In this document: positions 6,178-39,567 of the stretch, piece by piece | Layout: every line of letters starts with the position of its first letter | Position numbering within the stretch: position 1 is the stretch's first letter | Sequence record: NC_054906.1 | Reading direction: 5' to 3' (one strand) | Length of the DNA: 64,000 bases | Origin: Enterobacteria phage RB18 | Notes under the pieces: generated by a model | Told to the model about the DNA's origin: nothing | The model's input: only the letters and a program-made list of their open reading frames with translations | The model's database searches: none | Translations under genes and position numbers: made by a program

Positions 6178-6389
6178 GCATTCATCAACTTAGCCGCTTC
6201 AAGAGCTGCATCTAGTGAATCAAATTGGTCAACATATTCAATCAATTCGCCGTAATTGGCATATAACCACCATTGGCTAAATTCATACTCAAGGATGAAT
6301 CCATTTCCTTCAATTTGAGTTAAACCAATGCCATTTGTATTTACTTCATATCCAGCAAGACGCAAATCGTTAATAAGAGCTTCGTTCAT
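6174..6389 (-). CDS. Hypothetical protein
   Basis: 71-aa ORF, abuts neighbours with 4-nt overlaps. Confidence 0.45.
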   Translation of the reverse strand: MNEALINDLRLAGYEVNTNGIGLTQIEGNGFILEYEFSQWWLYANYGELIEYVDQFDSLDAALEAAKLMNA

Positions 6390-6391
6390 AA

Positions 6392-6718
6392 TTATACCTT
6401 AGTAATTTTCAGGTCTGCAAATTTTTTCTTGCGTTGATTTTTCATGCGACGAATAGTTTTATCGGAAATTTCATGCTTTTGATAAGCTTTAGATTCTACA
6501 CCAAAAGCTTTAACATCAAATTCTGACAAGATATATTGAACCAACAATTCACGGACAGTATTGCGTCCAATCTTCTGATCATTCTGTTTCATCGTCTGAT
6601 GAAGCTCTTTTTCCCATTTATCCAAAATTTGAGGAGTTACAATATCGCCTTTTTCTAACAAAGAAACTACTTTATCATATGCGTAAGAATTGATGGCGTT
6701 TTTAATTTGAATAGTCAT
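6392..6718 (-). CDS. Hypothetical protein
   Basis: 108-aa ORF with a basic C-terminus (RRMKNQRKKKF). Confidence 0.5.
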   Translation of the reverse strand: MTIQIKNAINSYAYDKVVSLLEKGDIVTPQILDKWEKELHQTMKQNDQKIGRNTVRELLVQYILSEFDVKAFGVESKAYQKHEISDKTIRRMKNQRKKKFADLKITKV

Positions 6719-6751
6719 ACATTATCCTCAATTACGTTAAAATTTTATTAT

Positions 6752-6772
6752 CCAAAAAGGGCCGAAGCCCTT
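6752..6772 (-). terminator. Intrinsic terminator (UUCG hairpin plus U-tract)
   Basis: Minus-strand AAGGGC-UUCG-GCCCUU followed by UUUUGG. Confidence 0.5.
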
Positions 6773-6971
6773 AGCTAAACTTTTTGGCACCCTTCCAGCC
6801 TTCGTACATCATTGCGACTGACAATGACAAAGCTCCTTCACATGCTGCATACTTATTATTCCAGAACCAATTTAGAAAAACTTCATCCTCAATACCATTG
6901 TGTTTCATGTTCTGGAAAAATTTGGCGCGTTCTTCAGCAATTCGCTGCGATAATTTAGATTCAGGATTCAT
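6771..6971 (-). CDS. Hypothetical protein
   Basis: 66-aa ORF followed by a UUCG-loop hairpin. Confidence 0.4.
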   Translation of the reverse strand: MNPESKLSQRIAEERAKFFQNMKHNGIEDEVFLNWFWNNKYAACEGALSLSVAMMYEGWKGAKKFS

Positions 6972-7187
6972 TTAAATTTCCCAATTGCCATTTTCATCAA
7001 TAAATTTAATCCAGTCATTTACTGACCACTTAGTTGTATCGCCTTTTGGAGCAACATTTAAAGTGTATAGCCATTGCTTAAAAAGCATTCGTTTGATATT
7101 CATATTTTCCTCAGCTATAACGATAACACTCGTTTGATTTACGTTTAGCAACTCGTTGAGAAGTATTATAATCAAAATCATCGTCAA
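6972..7187 (-). CDS. Hypothetical protein
   Basis: 71-aa ORF. Confidence 0.4.
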   Translation of the reverse strand: MTMILIIILLNELLNVNQTSVIVIAEENMNIKRMLFKQWLYTLNVAPKGDTTKWSVNDWIKFIDENGNWEI

Positions 7188-30029: not shown

Positions 30030-30503
30030 TTATTTGAACGATTTAACGTACTGAATAGAACCTTTACTATTCACAAAGGCAATTTTACCATTTTTGTTAT
30101 ACATGGTAGCAGTACGTTGATAGCCATAAGTTTGTTTACCAGATTGATAACCAACTAATGCAAAATTATCTTCACCCATTTTATTCTGTTTAGCGCGAAT
30201 ACGTTCATGACCATGTGCCATAAGAACCTTAGCATCACCTGTTGCAATGGATCGACGAGTTTTTTCATCTTCAACTGTATTAACAAAGTCGTCAAATGAA
30301 TCAAATTTAGCATGAGATTTATTATACAGTTTTCCATCTACTGCATAATTATATCCCTGTACATCCATCTCAACTTCTGTACCATCATCCAGTACAGCAG
30401 TGATTTTCTGTCCTTTTTTAAATTTCAAAAGATCAGTAAAAGATTCAGCAATAATTTGAGAATTAATAGCTGCTTCAGTAATAAATTCTTGATATGTTTT
30501 CAT
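30030..30503 (-). CDS. Internal (capsid-packaged) protein with capsid-targeting sequence, ipII/ipIII locus
   Basis: 157 aa starting MKTYQEFITEA, the T4 internal-protein targeting leader; adjacent to lysozyme e. Confidence 0.6.
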   Translation of the reverse strand: MKTYQEFITEAAINSQIIAESFTDLLKFKKGQKITAVLDDGTEVEMDVQGYNYAVDGKLYNKSHAKFDSFDDFVNTVEDEKTRRSIATGDAKVLMAHGHERIRAKQNKMGEDNFALVGYQSGKQTYGYQRTATMYNKNGKIAFVNSKGSIQYVKSFK

Positions 30504-34068: not shown

Positions 34069-34404
34069 TTATTCTTCGTCTAGCTCGTCGATAAAGACGT
34101 TGATGGCCTCGATAACGGCATCATTGATAGCTAATAAAATAAAATCATCGTCAGTACCTTTAGAAGATTCTAAAGCATTGATATATGCTTGGTTGGCGAG
34201 TTCCCAAGCCTTTTTAAAATAAGGAGCTTCATCATCAGGACAAATATCCCGCACGCCTTCAAAGATACGTTTGGCATAATCTAACACCCATTGTACAGGC
34301 ATGTTTTGAGAACGTTCGTTAAACTCTTTAAAGTCCTTAGATTCAAAAAGCTCTTCAGGATAATTATTTCTATTACAAAAAGCTTTACTAAAGTTACGTT
34401 TCAT
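34069..34404 (-). CDS. Hypothetical protein
   Basis: 111-aa ORF. Confidence 0.5.
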   Translation of the reverse strand: MKRNFSKAFCNRNNYPEELFESKDFKEFNERSQNMPVQWVLDYAKRIFEGVRDICPDDEAPYFKKAWELANQAYINALESSKGTDDDFILLAINDAVIEAINVFIDELDEE

Positions 34405-34460
34405 AATGTTTTCCTCATTTGTATAGGCTCATAATATCTCAATCATGAGCCTATGTAAAC

Positions 34461-34736
34461 TTATTTCATATTATTGAAATATTCTTCTGCGATTTCGTCG
34501 TTATCATGGTAAACTTTAGAAGACAGTTTAACATAACTTTCAGCAGTGAACATGTTAATCACAACCTTTACAGTATACCACTGACCGTCTTCATTGCCCA
34601 TTACCGCATAAGTTTCAAACATCGGATGATCAGGACCGATAACTTTAATATCATTCACTGTACGACCGAAATCTTCTGAAACACATTTCATAAAGAAGTT
34701 GAACAGTTCGCCGTAATTATCCATTTCGTTCTCCAA
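34461..34736 (-). CDS. Hypothetical protein
   Basis: 91-aa ORF downstream of an early-type promoter. Confidence 0.5.
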   Translation of the reverse strand: MENEMDNYGELFNFFMKCVSEDFGRTVNDIKVIGPDHPMFETYAVMGNEDGQWYTVKVVINMFTAESYVKLSSKVYHDNDEIAEEYFNNMK

Positions 34737-34767
34737 GTTGTTTTCTGTATCAGTAGTTGATAGTTGT

Positions 34768-34797
34768 ATAGTACCATGGAAGAACAGGGATGTAAAC
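34768..34797 (-). promoter_or_regulatory. Early promoter with conserved leader
   Basis: GTTTAC (34792-34797), 18-nt spacer, TGGTACTAT, leader ...CAACTATCAACTAC. Confidence 0.55.
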
Positions 34798-34925
34798 AGT
34801 TTTGTGAAAAAATTTTTAAAAAGTTTTAGGGAATTCTAGGGTCAGGAGGGGCAATTAAAAGATAGGATAATATATTATAAAGGGTAGAAACTAAATGATG
34901 CCTAGAGAGGCCCAGAAAGGCCTAG

Positions 34926-34961
34926 ATACCAAAAAGCCCCAACCTTTTGGTCGGGGCTAAG
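34926..34961 (-). terminator. Intrinsic terminator, copy 1 of a 36-bp direct repeat
   Basis: Minus-strand GCCCCGACC-AAAA-GGUUGGGGC then UUUUUGG; 35/36 identical to copy 2. Confidence 0.7.
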
Positions 34962-34965
34962 AATG

Positions 34966-35439
34966 TTATTTGATTTGTTTAGCAGACCAAATGCGGTCTT
35001 TAATAATTTTTTGGATGTCTTCAACATACTCTAGGTCATGAGCATGTGGGTTATCTTTAAAACTATAAGCACGAGCTAACTTTTGACCTTCAGTTTTGAT
35101 TACTAAAAGCTCTTTAAGGATAGCTTCATATCTGGAGATAATTCCTTTAACAATATTTTTTTCTTGTGTAGCTTTAGGATCTGCTTTAGGAGCAGGTTTA
35201 CCCGAAGCCTTTGCAAAAGCAGCGCCAGTAGCAACTAAACTTTTCCAGGCCATACTAACTGCATTCCCTGTAAATCCTTCGGCTTTCATATCACGAGCAA
35301 ATTGGAATCGTGATTCATCGGAAGCATCTTTATAGGAATATTTACCCGCGGCAATGGCTGCTTTTGCGACAGCTTGAATTTCGGTGCTAGATGCTTCATT
35401 TAACACCGCTTCATTTAAAAATTGAGCATATGATTTCAT
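34966..35439 (-). CDS. Late-expressed protein with a divergent capsid-targeting-like N-terminus
   Basis: 157 aa starting MKSYAQFLNEA (compare MKTYQEFIAEA); Ala/Lys-rich; own TATAAATA late promoter; flanked by two near-identical terminators. Confidence 0.55.
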   Translation of the reverse strand: MKSYAQFLNEAVLNEASSTEIQAVAKAAIAAGKYSYKDASDESRFQFARDMKAEGFTGNAVSMAWKSLVATGAAFAKASGKPAPKADPKATQEKNIVKGIISRYEAILKELLVIKTEGQKLARAYSFKDNPHAHDLEYVEDIQKIIKDRIWSAKQIK

Positions 35440-35475
35440 CTTATTTCCTGTTTTAATTCGTGGTTTTAATATACT

Positions 35476-35483
35476 TATTTATA
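35476..35483 (-). promoter_or_regulatory. Late promoter (TATAAATA) for the ORF at 34966-35439
   Basis: Minus-strand TATAAATA immediately after the upstream terminator U-tract. Confidence 0.55.
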
Positions 35484-35516
35484 CCAAAAAGCCCCAACCT
35501 TTCGGTCGGGGCTAAG
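35481..35516 (-). terminator. Intrinsic terminator, copy 2 of the 36-bp direct repeat
   Basis: GCCCCGACC-GAAA-GGUUGGGGC then UUUUUGG; terminates the tRNA/ncRNA transcript. Confidence 0.7.
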
Positions 35517-35822
35517 CCTTGCGGCAACCTTGTCGGGGTTCCACCTGCTAAGGCAAGTGTTTGTACGAAACGCCGGGATTCGAACCCGGTTATTAAGCAG
35601 TTGACGCTACTTAATATTTTTAAAAGGCCATATCTCGACCATATCCGAACGTTCCGTCAAAAACGCTACTCGGCTTACGGCAAAGATATTTCCTCGAATC
35701 GATAATTCGGTGCGCCGTTTCTGCTGTGATGTAAGAGGGCATCAATAAACGCAAAGATTATTAACGCAATTCCTTACTCAGGGAACATCAGTCCGACGAC
35801 TTACCGGTAGCGACCCGGTTTC
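35517..35822 (-). ncRNA. Candidate structured stable RNA downstream of tRNA-Arg (tRNA-like T-arm motif)
   Basis: About 300 nt with no convincing ORF; GC-rich relative to surroundings; contains CCGGG-TTCGAAT-CCCGG and GC-rich stems; ends at a strong terminator. Confidence 0.35.
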
Positions 35823-36173
35823 TTAATATTCTTTTAAAGCATCAATCTGCTCACGGCGTTTACGCCACAAATCAATTGCTTCATACGCGGATTCAGCATT
35901 TCGAATTAGCCGGCATTTATGTAAAGACTTATGATTTTGATATTGTGTAGATAACGGAATTTTATCTAAAAGGTCTTTACGTTCAAAGTATTCGTAACCA
36001 TCTAAGCCAAATGAACGATTTTTAAGAAATTGCCAATGACCATATTCGTTTTCGATATAAACATAATCTGCGTGCTGATAAAGCAAATTAATTACGCGTT
36101 CAGAAATAACAGTGTCATTGTGATTAAAATAGAATGTTAAATCATGAACTACTAAATAAACATTACCTTTCAT
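35823..36173 (-). CDS. Hypothetical protein encoded inside the tRNA region
   Basis: 116 aa; strong RBS AAGTGAGGAAAATATG; lies just 3' of tRNA-Arg on the same strand. Confidence 0.55.
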   Translation of the reverse strand: MKGNVYLVVHDLTFYFNHNDTVISERVINLLYQHADYVYIENEYGHWQFLKNRSFGLDGYEYFERKDLLDKIPLSTQYQNHKSLHKCRLIRNAESAYEAIDLWRKRREQIDALKEY

Positions 36174-36270: not shown

Positions 36271-36346
36271 TTGGGGTGACCGATGGGAGTCGAACCCATG
36301 ACTACGAGAATCACAATCTCGAGTTCTACCAACTGAACTACGGCCA
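36271..36346 (-). tRNA. tRNA-His (anticodon GUG)
   Basis: 76 nt; anticodon loop UUGUGAU; discriminator C; T-loop TTCGACT. Confidence 0.75.
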
Positions 36347-36460
36347 CATTAATACCTACTCCAACAATCAAGATGTCTTCACACGAAATTAAGAGAAGAG
36401 TGATCAGTTCAACCCTTATAATCGCGTCAAGTAGATATTAATGTGACAGTTGTCACAAAT

Positions 36461-36535
36461 TTGGCGGACGTGATAGGATTCGAACCTATAACCAATCGCT
36501 TAACAGGCGATCGCTCTGCCATTGAGCTACACATC
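36461..36535 (-). tRNA. tRNA-Asn (anticodon GUU)
   Basis: 75 nt; anticodon loop CUGUUAA; T-arm ATAGG-TTCGAAT-CCTAT. Confidence 0.75.
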
Positions 36536-36886: not shown

Positions 36887-37537
36887 TTATATATTGTTAA
36901 TTTGATTTAGAATTCTTTTTGCTTGAGTATGACTTACGCCAATATGCTTAGCATATTTAGACAATTCGCCACGTTTAGAAAAATCATATAATTTAGAAAT
37001 TTCTATTCTTCTTTTTCTTTCATCCGCAGAAACTTTTGCTTCGTTCGCTTTTGCTATTTTACGTTTAGCTTCTTGAGAATGAGTTTTACCAGCAAAGCCA
37101 TTCTTCATTAATCCATTTGAAGACCATCCTTTTAATTTTCCGTTAGAATGTGCCTTTTTAACACCCAATGAAATTAATTCGCGCTGCTGATCTGTCATAG
37201 GATAATTATTTATATGGTCCCATCCACCTTCACCTCCAAGTTTTAAATTATACACATCTGGTCTATTTAAAAACTCTTCTGTGACAATATTTTTCTCGGC
37301 TTCAAGCATAGATTCTTTATCGTCAAAATACTCTAATATTTCTTTAGAAAAATTTTCTATACCATATTTATCTTGGGCTCTTTTTAATAATTTACCAGAA
37401 CCCATATATCCATCATCTAAATTTTCGGTAGAATGCACACCAATATAAATTTTATTATTAATTTTATTTGTTATTTTATAAAGATAAAAATGCATATCAG
37501 TCCCTAATAAAGAACTGAGCGTCTCACGACGAGTCAT
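36887..37537 (-). CDS. segB: GIY-YIG homing endonuclease SegB-like
   Basis: GIY-YIG motif FYLYKITNKINNKIYIGVHS; inserted between tRNA-Gly and tRNA-Ser; the true start may be the internal ATG at 37495. Confidence 0.7.
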   Translation of the reverse strand: MTRRETLSSLLGTDMHFYLYKITNKINNKIYIGVHSTENLDDGYMGSGKLLKRAQDKYGIENFSKEILEYFDDKESMLEAEKNIVTEEFLNRPDVYNLKLGGEGGWDHINNYPMTDQQRELISLGVKKAHSNGKLKGWSSNGLMKNGFAGKTHSQEAKRKIAKANEAKVSADERKRRIEISKLYDFSKRGELSKYAKHIGVSHTQAKRILNQINNI

Positions 37538-39333: not shown

Positions 39334-39567
39334 TTATTTTTTACGAAAAATTGATTTATATTTATCAGCCCATTTCTCAATGACTTTTGCCGGGCCATAG
39401 ATAACAAAGTAATCGCCAAACTCTTCACCACCGAGTTGACCGAAATCATCTAATGCATCACGAAGAACTCCATGAGGCATTTCACCCATTTTATCTTTCT
39501 TGCCAGTGTAAATAAACTCAACTTTTACATCAGCAGTTTCAGCAATAAATTCTTGATACGTTTTCAT
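39334..39567 (-). CDS. Internal (capsid-packaged) protein candidate at the ipI locus
   Basis: 77 aa from ATG 39567 (RBS GGAGAA), beginning with the exact T4-type targeting leader MKTYQEFIAE; the body is short and acidic. Confidence 0.6.
   Translation of the reverse strand: MKTYQEFIAETADVKVEFIYTGKKDKMGEMPHGVLRDALDDFGQLGGEEFGDYFVIYGPAKVIEKWADKYKSIFRKK

Follow-up and report, generated by a model that had tools for sequence, protein, structure and literature searches.

The 64,000-nucleotide stretch of Enterobacteria phage RB18 DNA analysed here (NC_054906.1; hereafter the window) is Tequatrovirus sequence, and the subject of this report is a small cassette at positions 34926 to 35516, in which a single gene, here called gene A, is flanked by two copies of one terminator-like sequence, T1. 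TB37, teqdroes, AR1 and many others match the cassette region at 95-99% identity. Read along the minus strand, a tRNA cluster (10 tRNAs) is followed by a 116-aa open reading frame (ORF), homologues of T4 rnaD and rnaC, the cassette, e.8 and e.7; the cassette site is therefore between e.8 and rnaC, 3' of the tRNA genes. The features of the locus are as follows.

34461..34736 (annotated form 34461-34724), minus strand: e.8 homologue, the next gene downstream of the cassette
34926..34961, minus strand: downstream T1, hairpin 34935-34958 with AAAA loop, predicted terminator of the cassette transcript
34966..35439, minus strand: gene A, 157 aa, phrog_2280, product starting MKSYAQFLNEA
35410..35439, minus strand: leader MKSYAQFLNE, codons 1-10, resembling a capsid targeting sequence and ending at an L-x-E cleavage-type site
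35444..35449, minus strand: Shine-Dalgarno-like AGGAAA, 4 nt ahead of the ATG, as read from the sequence
35476..35483, minus strand: TATAAATA, exact match to the T4-type late promoter -10 element
35481..35516, minus strand: upstream (rnaC-proximal) T1, hairpin 35490-35513 with GAAA loop, U-tract 35486-35489
35564..35702, minus strand: homologue of T4 rnaC (species 1 RNA), by alignment to T4; its 3' side abuts the upstream T1

A preliminary description of the locus had reported a 36-bp direct repeat with one mismatch, each copy being an intrinsic terminator on the minus strand, and both the repeat and the terminator-like structure of its copies were borne out. A repeat finder returned the same pair (34926-34961 and 35481-35516, 97% identical, spacing 555 nt), the sole mismatch, T versus C, was located in the hairpin loop, and similarity between the copies ended exactly at both 36-nt edges. 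The 28-nt core of the repeat was found at exactly two sites in the window with three mismatches allowed, and at none in 100 shuffles. Both copies were called as terminator-like on the minus strand, with a 10-bp stem (seven G-C pairs), a loop of 4 nt and then TTTTGGTAT; the folding energies were -19.5 and -21.5 kcal/mol (z = -3.7 versus shuffles). Each is thus a predicted intrinsic terminator by the usual criterion of a G+C-rich hairpin with a direct U-tract (UUUUU). The stem contains a G-U wobble in minus-strand RNA and an A-C mismatch on the opposite strand, and for this reason the minus strand fits as the functional one.

The same description had placed a late promoter and one ORF between the repeats. 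The ORF stood, the other small ORFs listed in the interval being without support, but the putative promoter does not lie strictly between the repeats, as TATAAATA shares its first three bases (TAT) with the end of the upstream repeat copy. TATAAATA begins 6 nt past the hairpin and ends 36 nt ahead of the gene A ATG. At the downstream copy TATCTAGG comes next, and hence no late promoter is formed there. A sigma-70 scan listed no minus-strand site at 35440-35520, and Rfam gave no family across the cassette interval. The junction between hairpin and TATAAATA was kept in all occupied Tequatrovirus loci read, even in alleles with a different spacer to the ATG, and of four more distant loci read, three kept TATAAATA. 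The SA21RB record (OL960580) already annotates terminators and a late promoter at the cassette site. We infer from this layout that transcription of gene A is late-only and insulated. The upstream T1 would end early and middle transcripts of the tRNA/rnaC operon, TATAAATA, fused to the U-tract of that T1 copy, would start a monocistronic late mRNA, and the downstream T1 would end this mRNA ahead of the e.8 early promoter region; the gene A product would be made only late, at the time of prohead assembly.

Phage RB18 has a hypothetical protein to which the predicted product is identical. The T4 internal proteins (Ips) IPII and IPIII start MKTYQEFIAEA, and the likeness to this N-terminus pointed out in the preliminary description was upheld: these starts and the gene A leader all fit the pattern M-K-[ST]-Y-x-[EQ]-F-[IL]-x-E-A. 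Leaders of the MKTYQEFIAE type define the capsid targeting sequence (CTS), and the 10-residue CTS is reported to suffice for packaging foreign proteins in T4 (PMC8442874). In all six frames of the window the CTS pattern matched just three ORFs, namely gene A, 39334-39567 and 30030-30503. The latter two, both on the minus strand, are situated at the ipI locus (MKTYQEFIAE) and the ipII/ipIII locus (MKTYQEFITE) and fall in PHROGs annotated as internal virion protein; the window carries ordinary Ip genes at both described Ip loci. ORF 39334-39567 has a T4 early-promoter-like sequence upstream, not TATAAATA.

The prohead protease gp21 cleaves at a consensus, L/I-x-E, found at the end of such leaders. 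The gene A protein has a cleavage-type site (LNE followed by A) at residues 8-11 and a second, identical one at residues 13-16. The predicted mature protein after Glu10 or Glu15 would comprise 142-147 aa, with an isoelectric point of 9.4-9.5 and a predicted N-terminus of AVLNEASSTEIQAVAK or ASSTEIQAVAK. An N-terminus of the form x-x-F-x-[ED]-F-L-x-E, with its F-[LI]-x-E leader motif, was retained by relatives as distant as ∼40% identity and by most remoter representatives. An AlphaFold model (mean pLDDT 74.5) was all helical, with three short helices, a Pro/Lys/Ala-rich linker and a long helical hairpin, which gives a predicted layout of leader, helical N-domain, linker and helical C-terminal hairpin. 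Pfam gave no domain in the protein, and a profile search of PDB sequences with the gene A family gave no match. A profile search of 1.84 billion protein representatives yielded 13 family members, and all those that could be placed were on T4-like phage contigs. In PHROGs, gene A, a second gene (B, below), a Mosigvirus form (C) and a Klebsiella form together make up phrog_2280, whose function is not annotated, and the names of gene A relatives in the records and name lists read were always hypothetical.

Gene A is a real gene under purifying selection, since the ratio of nonsynonymous to synonymous substitution (dN/dS) was 0.07-0.11 in comparisons with AR1, G9062, RB27 and mobillu; the N-domain changes faster than the C-domain. 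It is also dispensable, being absent from T4, T2, PST and RB5 and pseudogenised in several phages. Truncated, frameshifted or stop-bearing copies were seen in SfPhi01 (P0006), in a 97-aa cluster member (P0019, e.g. vB_EcoM-G28) and in KpV477 (L014, about 1995-2530). Such broken copies fit dispensability, or could be sequencing error.

The preliminary description proposed that presence and absence of the cassette be compared across T4-like genomes, and the locus proved to be polymorphic. Distances between two conserved anchors were determined in 19 genomes and fell into four discrete states. A distance of 119 nt corresponded to an empty site (T4, T2, PST, phage 132, GEC_SH_GT and RB5), 654-678 nt to gene A only (the window, AR1, R5505, phiD1, RB27 and an IMG/VR contig of 169,650 nt, L004), 791-805 nt to gene B only (HY03 and RB69) and 1361-1365 nt to A and B in tandem (G9062, SA21RB, OE5505 and two IMG/VR contigs). 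T4 has one terminator copy 3' of rnaC, with the same flanks and no gene there. Window positions 34400-34960 aligned to T4 locus positions 6300-6860 and 35481-35823 to 6826-7169, with the single T4 copy aligning at the upstream T1. As this one copy matches both window copies, the difference between the window and T4 is a clean 555-bp indel.

Gene B encodes 187 aa starting MKTYAEFLTEA, and is split by a frameshift in RB69 and OE5505. The copies read are listed below by locus sequence.

L011, 850-1413: gene B of G9062
L016, 793-1356: gene B of HY03
L017, 804-1366: gene B of RB69
L010, 851-1413: gene B of OE5505

Only the 11-residue leader was common to the A and B proteins by BLASTP and by hhalign with shallow alignments, and homology beyond the leader is therefore not claimed, although PHROGs groups both. 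At the end of gene B lies a different hairpin (CCCTATCTAAATGATAGGG), here called terminator T2 (not to be confused with the phage), which has a tail, AAAAAGCC...GGTAT (U-tract/GGTAT), in common with T1. The junctions read flank-T1-rnaC in empty alleles, flank-T1-A-T1-rnaC in A-only alleles, flank-T2-B-T1-rnaC in B-only alleles and flank-T2-B-T1-A-T1-rnaC in tandem alleles, all allele boundaries being at T1 or at its AAAAAGCC tail. Empty alleles were found on several flank and T1 haplotypes also seen in occupied alleles: one T1 variant is common to GEC_SH_GT (empty) and HY03, another to phage 132 (empty) and RB27. Private T1 variants were the same in both copies within RB27, and likewise within SA21RB. 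This comparison of variants suggests repeated events and exchange between T1 copies.

The frequency of the alleles was surveyed by span and coverage in a phage collection. At least 80% of the A-type allele was covered by 386 of the 738 matching phage records, and an evenly spaced sample of 60 rows contained about 23 A-only, 8-9 A+B, 2-3 B-only and 5-6 empty alleles. The gene A protein was encoded in 510 records by tblastn. On these counts of A-type alleles and of records encoding the protein, the state of T4 and T2 is the minority one. Gene A occurred once per genome among the matches listed, and wherever its locus was read it was the same one. A scan of IMG/VR with the terminator pattern found five loci only.

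Mosigvirus, Jiaodavirus and Yersinia phage fHe-Yen9-01 also have family members at this position. RB27 has an exact TATAAATA beside the hairpin and then the family gene, downstream of the tRNA genes. In Mosigvirus mobillu the family gene is flanked by a pair of related hairpins, about 81% alike. Jiaodavirus KpV477 has a different hairpin, then CTTTTTAGTATAAATA and the family gene, again downstream of tRNA genes, and in Jiaodavirus unrelated hairpins stand on either side of the family gene. The Yersinia phage has a hairpin, TATAAATA and two tandem family genes downstream of tRNA genes, while metagenomic contig L026 has a hairpin, TATAAATA and a 71-aa ORF overlapping the start of the family gene, with the tRNA context beyond view; TATAAATA is farther from the hairpin in both of these. 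The diverged members, which follow a hairpin and TATAAATA, are as follows.

L018, 1349-1957: family member of Shigella phage SSE1 (Mosigvirus)
L025, 922-1491: family member of fHe-Yen9-01
L025, 1501-2037: family member of fHe-Yen9-01

Their leaders are MNFLAETEVITE (followed by A), MLQYNEFLKE (followed by S) and MLEYSEFLKE (followed by L). These members combine N- and C-domains otherwise than gene A does, a sign that domains may have been shuffled within the family. Because family members share one position in several phage lineages, the cassette is probably ancestral and the empty site of T4 a deletion. The preliminary description had taken the layout for a module inserted or exchanged by recombination between repeated elements. 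The polymorphism of the locus and the breakpoints at the shared terminator support recombination, but a recent insertion here is improbable, loss in T4 being the likelier direction.

Taken together, these data make it likely, in our judgement, that gene A is an internal-protein-like cassette of a variable locus 3' of the tRNA/rnaC unit, whose product would be injected and whose alleles would be reshuffled at the terminator. Led by MKSYAQFLNE, the protein would be directed to the prohead core and cut by gp21 after Glu10, perhaps also after Glu15; the basic mature product, of about 16 kDa, would remain in the head and pass into the cell along with the DNA. A virion-packaged, injected protein is plausible on the strength of sequence features, namely the conserved leader with its predicted cleavage site, the basic mature protein and the conserved late-promoter box. 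By analogy with Ip1-3, the injected protein may act against a first-line defence of the host. At the DNA level the T1 copies would be substrates for homologous recombination, a crossover between them deleting the gene and leaving one copy, which is the state of T4 and T2. Such a T1 × T1 crossover would convert A-only to empty and A+B to B-only, and unequal crossover at T1 between A-only and B-only genomes would yield A+B and empty; recombination within the 36 nt would in this way be the origin of the alleles. This is supported by the deletion and amplification of segments at microhomologies in T4 (PMC9391042) and by the mini-circle work on the PeSL (promoter-early stem-loop) mobile regulatory cassettes (PMC2839356).

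The locus has features of three systems already described. Ip genes are known to reside in hyperplastic loci and to be shuffled at repeated regulatory sequence. Gene A, small, basic and dispensable, is like the T-even Ips (IPI, IPII and IPIII, and Ip4-10 with the further variants of Repoila et al., 1994). These have a leader of ∼10 residues such as MKTYQEFIAE, ending L/I-x-E, and paralogues unrelated beyond it, as seen here; Ip1-3 share the leader only and inhibit GmrSD enzymes (PMC12373910). As at the Ip loci, the number and identity of genes vary among close relatives and the breakpoints lie in repeated regulatory sequence. Unlike the Ips, the gene A family is kept at one site across several lineages, and the repeated element is here a strong G+C-rich predicted terminator fused to a putative late promoter, whereas that associated with Ip genes is early-promoter based with weak A+T-rich stem-loops. 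Membership of gene A in the Ip class, judged from these sequence features, is provisional. One of the numbered Ips (Ip4-10) may belong to phrog_2280.

PeSL cassettes are known from RB49/phi1, PST/T4 and nt-1/KVP40 (Arbiol et al., 2010, PMC2839356; Comeau et al., 2014, PMC4122927), and for them, too, indels with repeated regulatory cassettes at their boundaries have been described, as have mini-circles (PMC2839356). In both cases a stem-loop and promoter element flanks single small ORFs, with a Shine-Dalgarno sequence present, and indels between close relatives leave one element (chimeric in PeSLs); the mechanism proposed for PeSLs is recombination between flanking copies, giving a deletion and a mini-circle. 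The present cassette differs in that its putative promoter is the late TATAAATA and not a sigma-70-like early promoter, and T1 is present in only two copies in 64 kb, not as a dispersed family, with no sequence relation to the PeSLs. In T4, recombination at microhomologies also deletes and amplifies segments (Srikant et al., 2022, PMC9391042). The loss or gain there of non-essential accessory genes, ipIII among them, between short repeats, which affects host range, resembles the present case; those events were laboratory-selected at assorted microhomologies, whereas a defined element and natural alleles are involved here.

Several observations weigh against the explanation preferred here. Only two Ip loci (ipI and ipII/ipIII) are described in published accounts, which place no IP genes elsewhere in T-even genomes; gene A, at a third site between e.8 and rnaC, is outside both. 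The label "internal protein" was carried by none of the 60 listed of 510 matching records and by none of the 56 named cluster members, no virion proteomics or locus-tag report naming the gene A protein was found in the literature, and a Foldseek search of PDB with the AlphaFold model, itself of moderate quality (pLDDT 74.5), gave nothing below E = 1. With respect to transcription, TATAAATA occurred 14 times in the window against an expectation of 9.95 +/- 3.2, which is not above chance, so that the case for its function rests on conservation in relatives, and the upstream box of cassette B matched at only seven of eight positions (AATAAATA), as did that of the mobillu copy of A. The absence of the family from the accounts of Ips read would suit a late protein with a cleaved propeptide that is neither retained nor injected, acting as a transient accessory of the prohead core or scaffold, or a non-virion protein whose leader only looks like a CTS. 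The position and architecture of the family, far more conserved across lineages than those of classical Ips, and the strong purifying selection with no visible diversification also favour this explanation. However, the leader is close to the CTS of IPII and IPIII, ten residues of which are reported to package foreign proteins in T4 (PMC8442874), the mature protein is predicted to be basic as Ips are, and a gene that T4 and T2 lack and that has repeatedly become a pseudogene does not look like a factor needed for assembly; we consider the explanation unlikely.

The role of T1 in recombination can be doubted separately. A homology of 36 nt is short for efficient recombination in T4, and alleles may have spread more through exchange in the long homologous flanks. 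If so, the two T1 copies would only insulate a late gene, and presence or absence would result from whole-allele exchange via the flanks (e.8 and rnaC/tRNA), perhaps aided by a homing endonuclease. The flanks are 93-98% identical among phages, a GIY-YIG/NUMOD3 ORF is situated 1.4 kb off in the tRNA cluster, and the unrelated hairpins flanking the Jiaodavirus gene imply that a duplicated terminator is not required there. Against this, every boundary is exactly at T1, the origin of each allele would need explaining even if its spread were by flanking exchange, empty alleles occur on several flank and T1 haplotypes that recur in occupied alleles, and the private T1 variants shared by both copies in RB27 and SA21RB suggest exchange between copies. 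A purely insulating role for T1 therefore appears improbable to us, though crossover in T1 and exchange in the flanks are not exclusive. Much less credible still, to the point of being very improbable, is an autonomous mobile element (a transposon or homing cassette) with the 36-nt repeat as its target-site duplication. A discrete insert between direct repeats is what such an element would leave, but the cassette consists of one 157-aa ORF with no Pfam domain, and so has no transposase, integrase or nuclease; it is found once per genome among the matches listed, at the same locus wherever read, and the repeat looks like a terminator, of which the empty site holds one copy, and not like a random target sequence.

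An extension of the internal-protein reading is put forward more tentatively, as a possibility to which we give somewhat less than even weight. It holds phrog_2280 to be a third, ancestral internal-protein locus of the Tevenvirinae, in which A, B, C and their mosaics would be shuffled at the terminator and late-promoter element and the products would inhibit first-line defences, with targets that are maybe not GmrSD. In that case the loss of the gene from the laboratory phages T4 and T2 would explain why the locus has been overlooked.

Some further observations concern the surroundings of the cassette. The rnaC and rnaD homologues (species 1 and 2 RNA) are at about 35564-35702 and 35709-35826 on the minus strand; Rfam gave no family for either, and in the records read in detail they are unannotated or overlaid by small, probably spurious ORFs (ar1_138, R5505_00140/141). 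The 116-aa ORF between rnaD and tRNA-Arg (35823-36173, minus strand, phrog_3355) is without a Pfam domain; rnaD and tRNA-Arg are directly adjacent in T4, and the ORF is found in phage T2 and Mosigvirus too. The GIY-YIG/NUMOD3 homing-endonuclease-like ORF (216 aa, 36887-37537, minus strand) is located between tRNA-Ser and tRNA-Gly, at the exact site of tRNA-Pro in phage R5505, and the window is without tRNA-Pro. Its AR1 equivalent is annotated segD, and T4 segB is elsewhere in the tRNA cluster. A gap of 114 nt between tRNA-His and tRNA-Asn (36348-36461), in which no tRNA was called, is flanked by a 24-nt inverted repeat (36337-36360 and 36430-36453, 83% complementary). A likeness of the e.8 promoter region to sequence beside T4 ipI and ipII was considered and discarded, as it is the generic T4 early-promoter consensus, present at many sites.

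The locus is a clean natural case of genes being gained and lost where a regulatory element is repeated, and its allelic series (empty, A, B and A+B) is natural near-isogenic material for host-range work. The family is present in more than 500 sequenced therapeutic-type coliphages and Shigella, Yersinia and Klebsiella phages. If the gene A protein is not packaged, gene A is an ordinary late accessory gene whose indel history is tidy. Internal proteins, on the other hand, are the first phage products to meet host immunity, and Ip1, Ip2 and Ip3 have each recently been matched to a specific GmrSD-type restriction enzyme (PMC12373910). If packaged and injected, the proteins of this family would be new candidate counter-defence proteins, encoded outside the two loci where Ips are sought.

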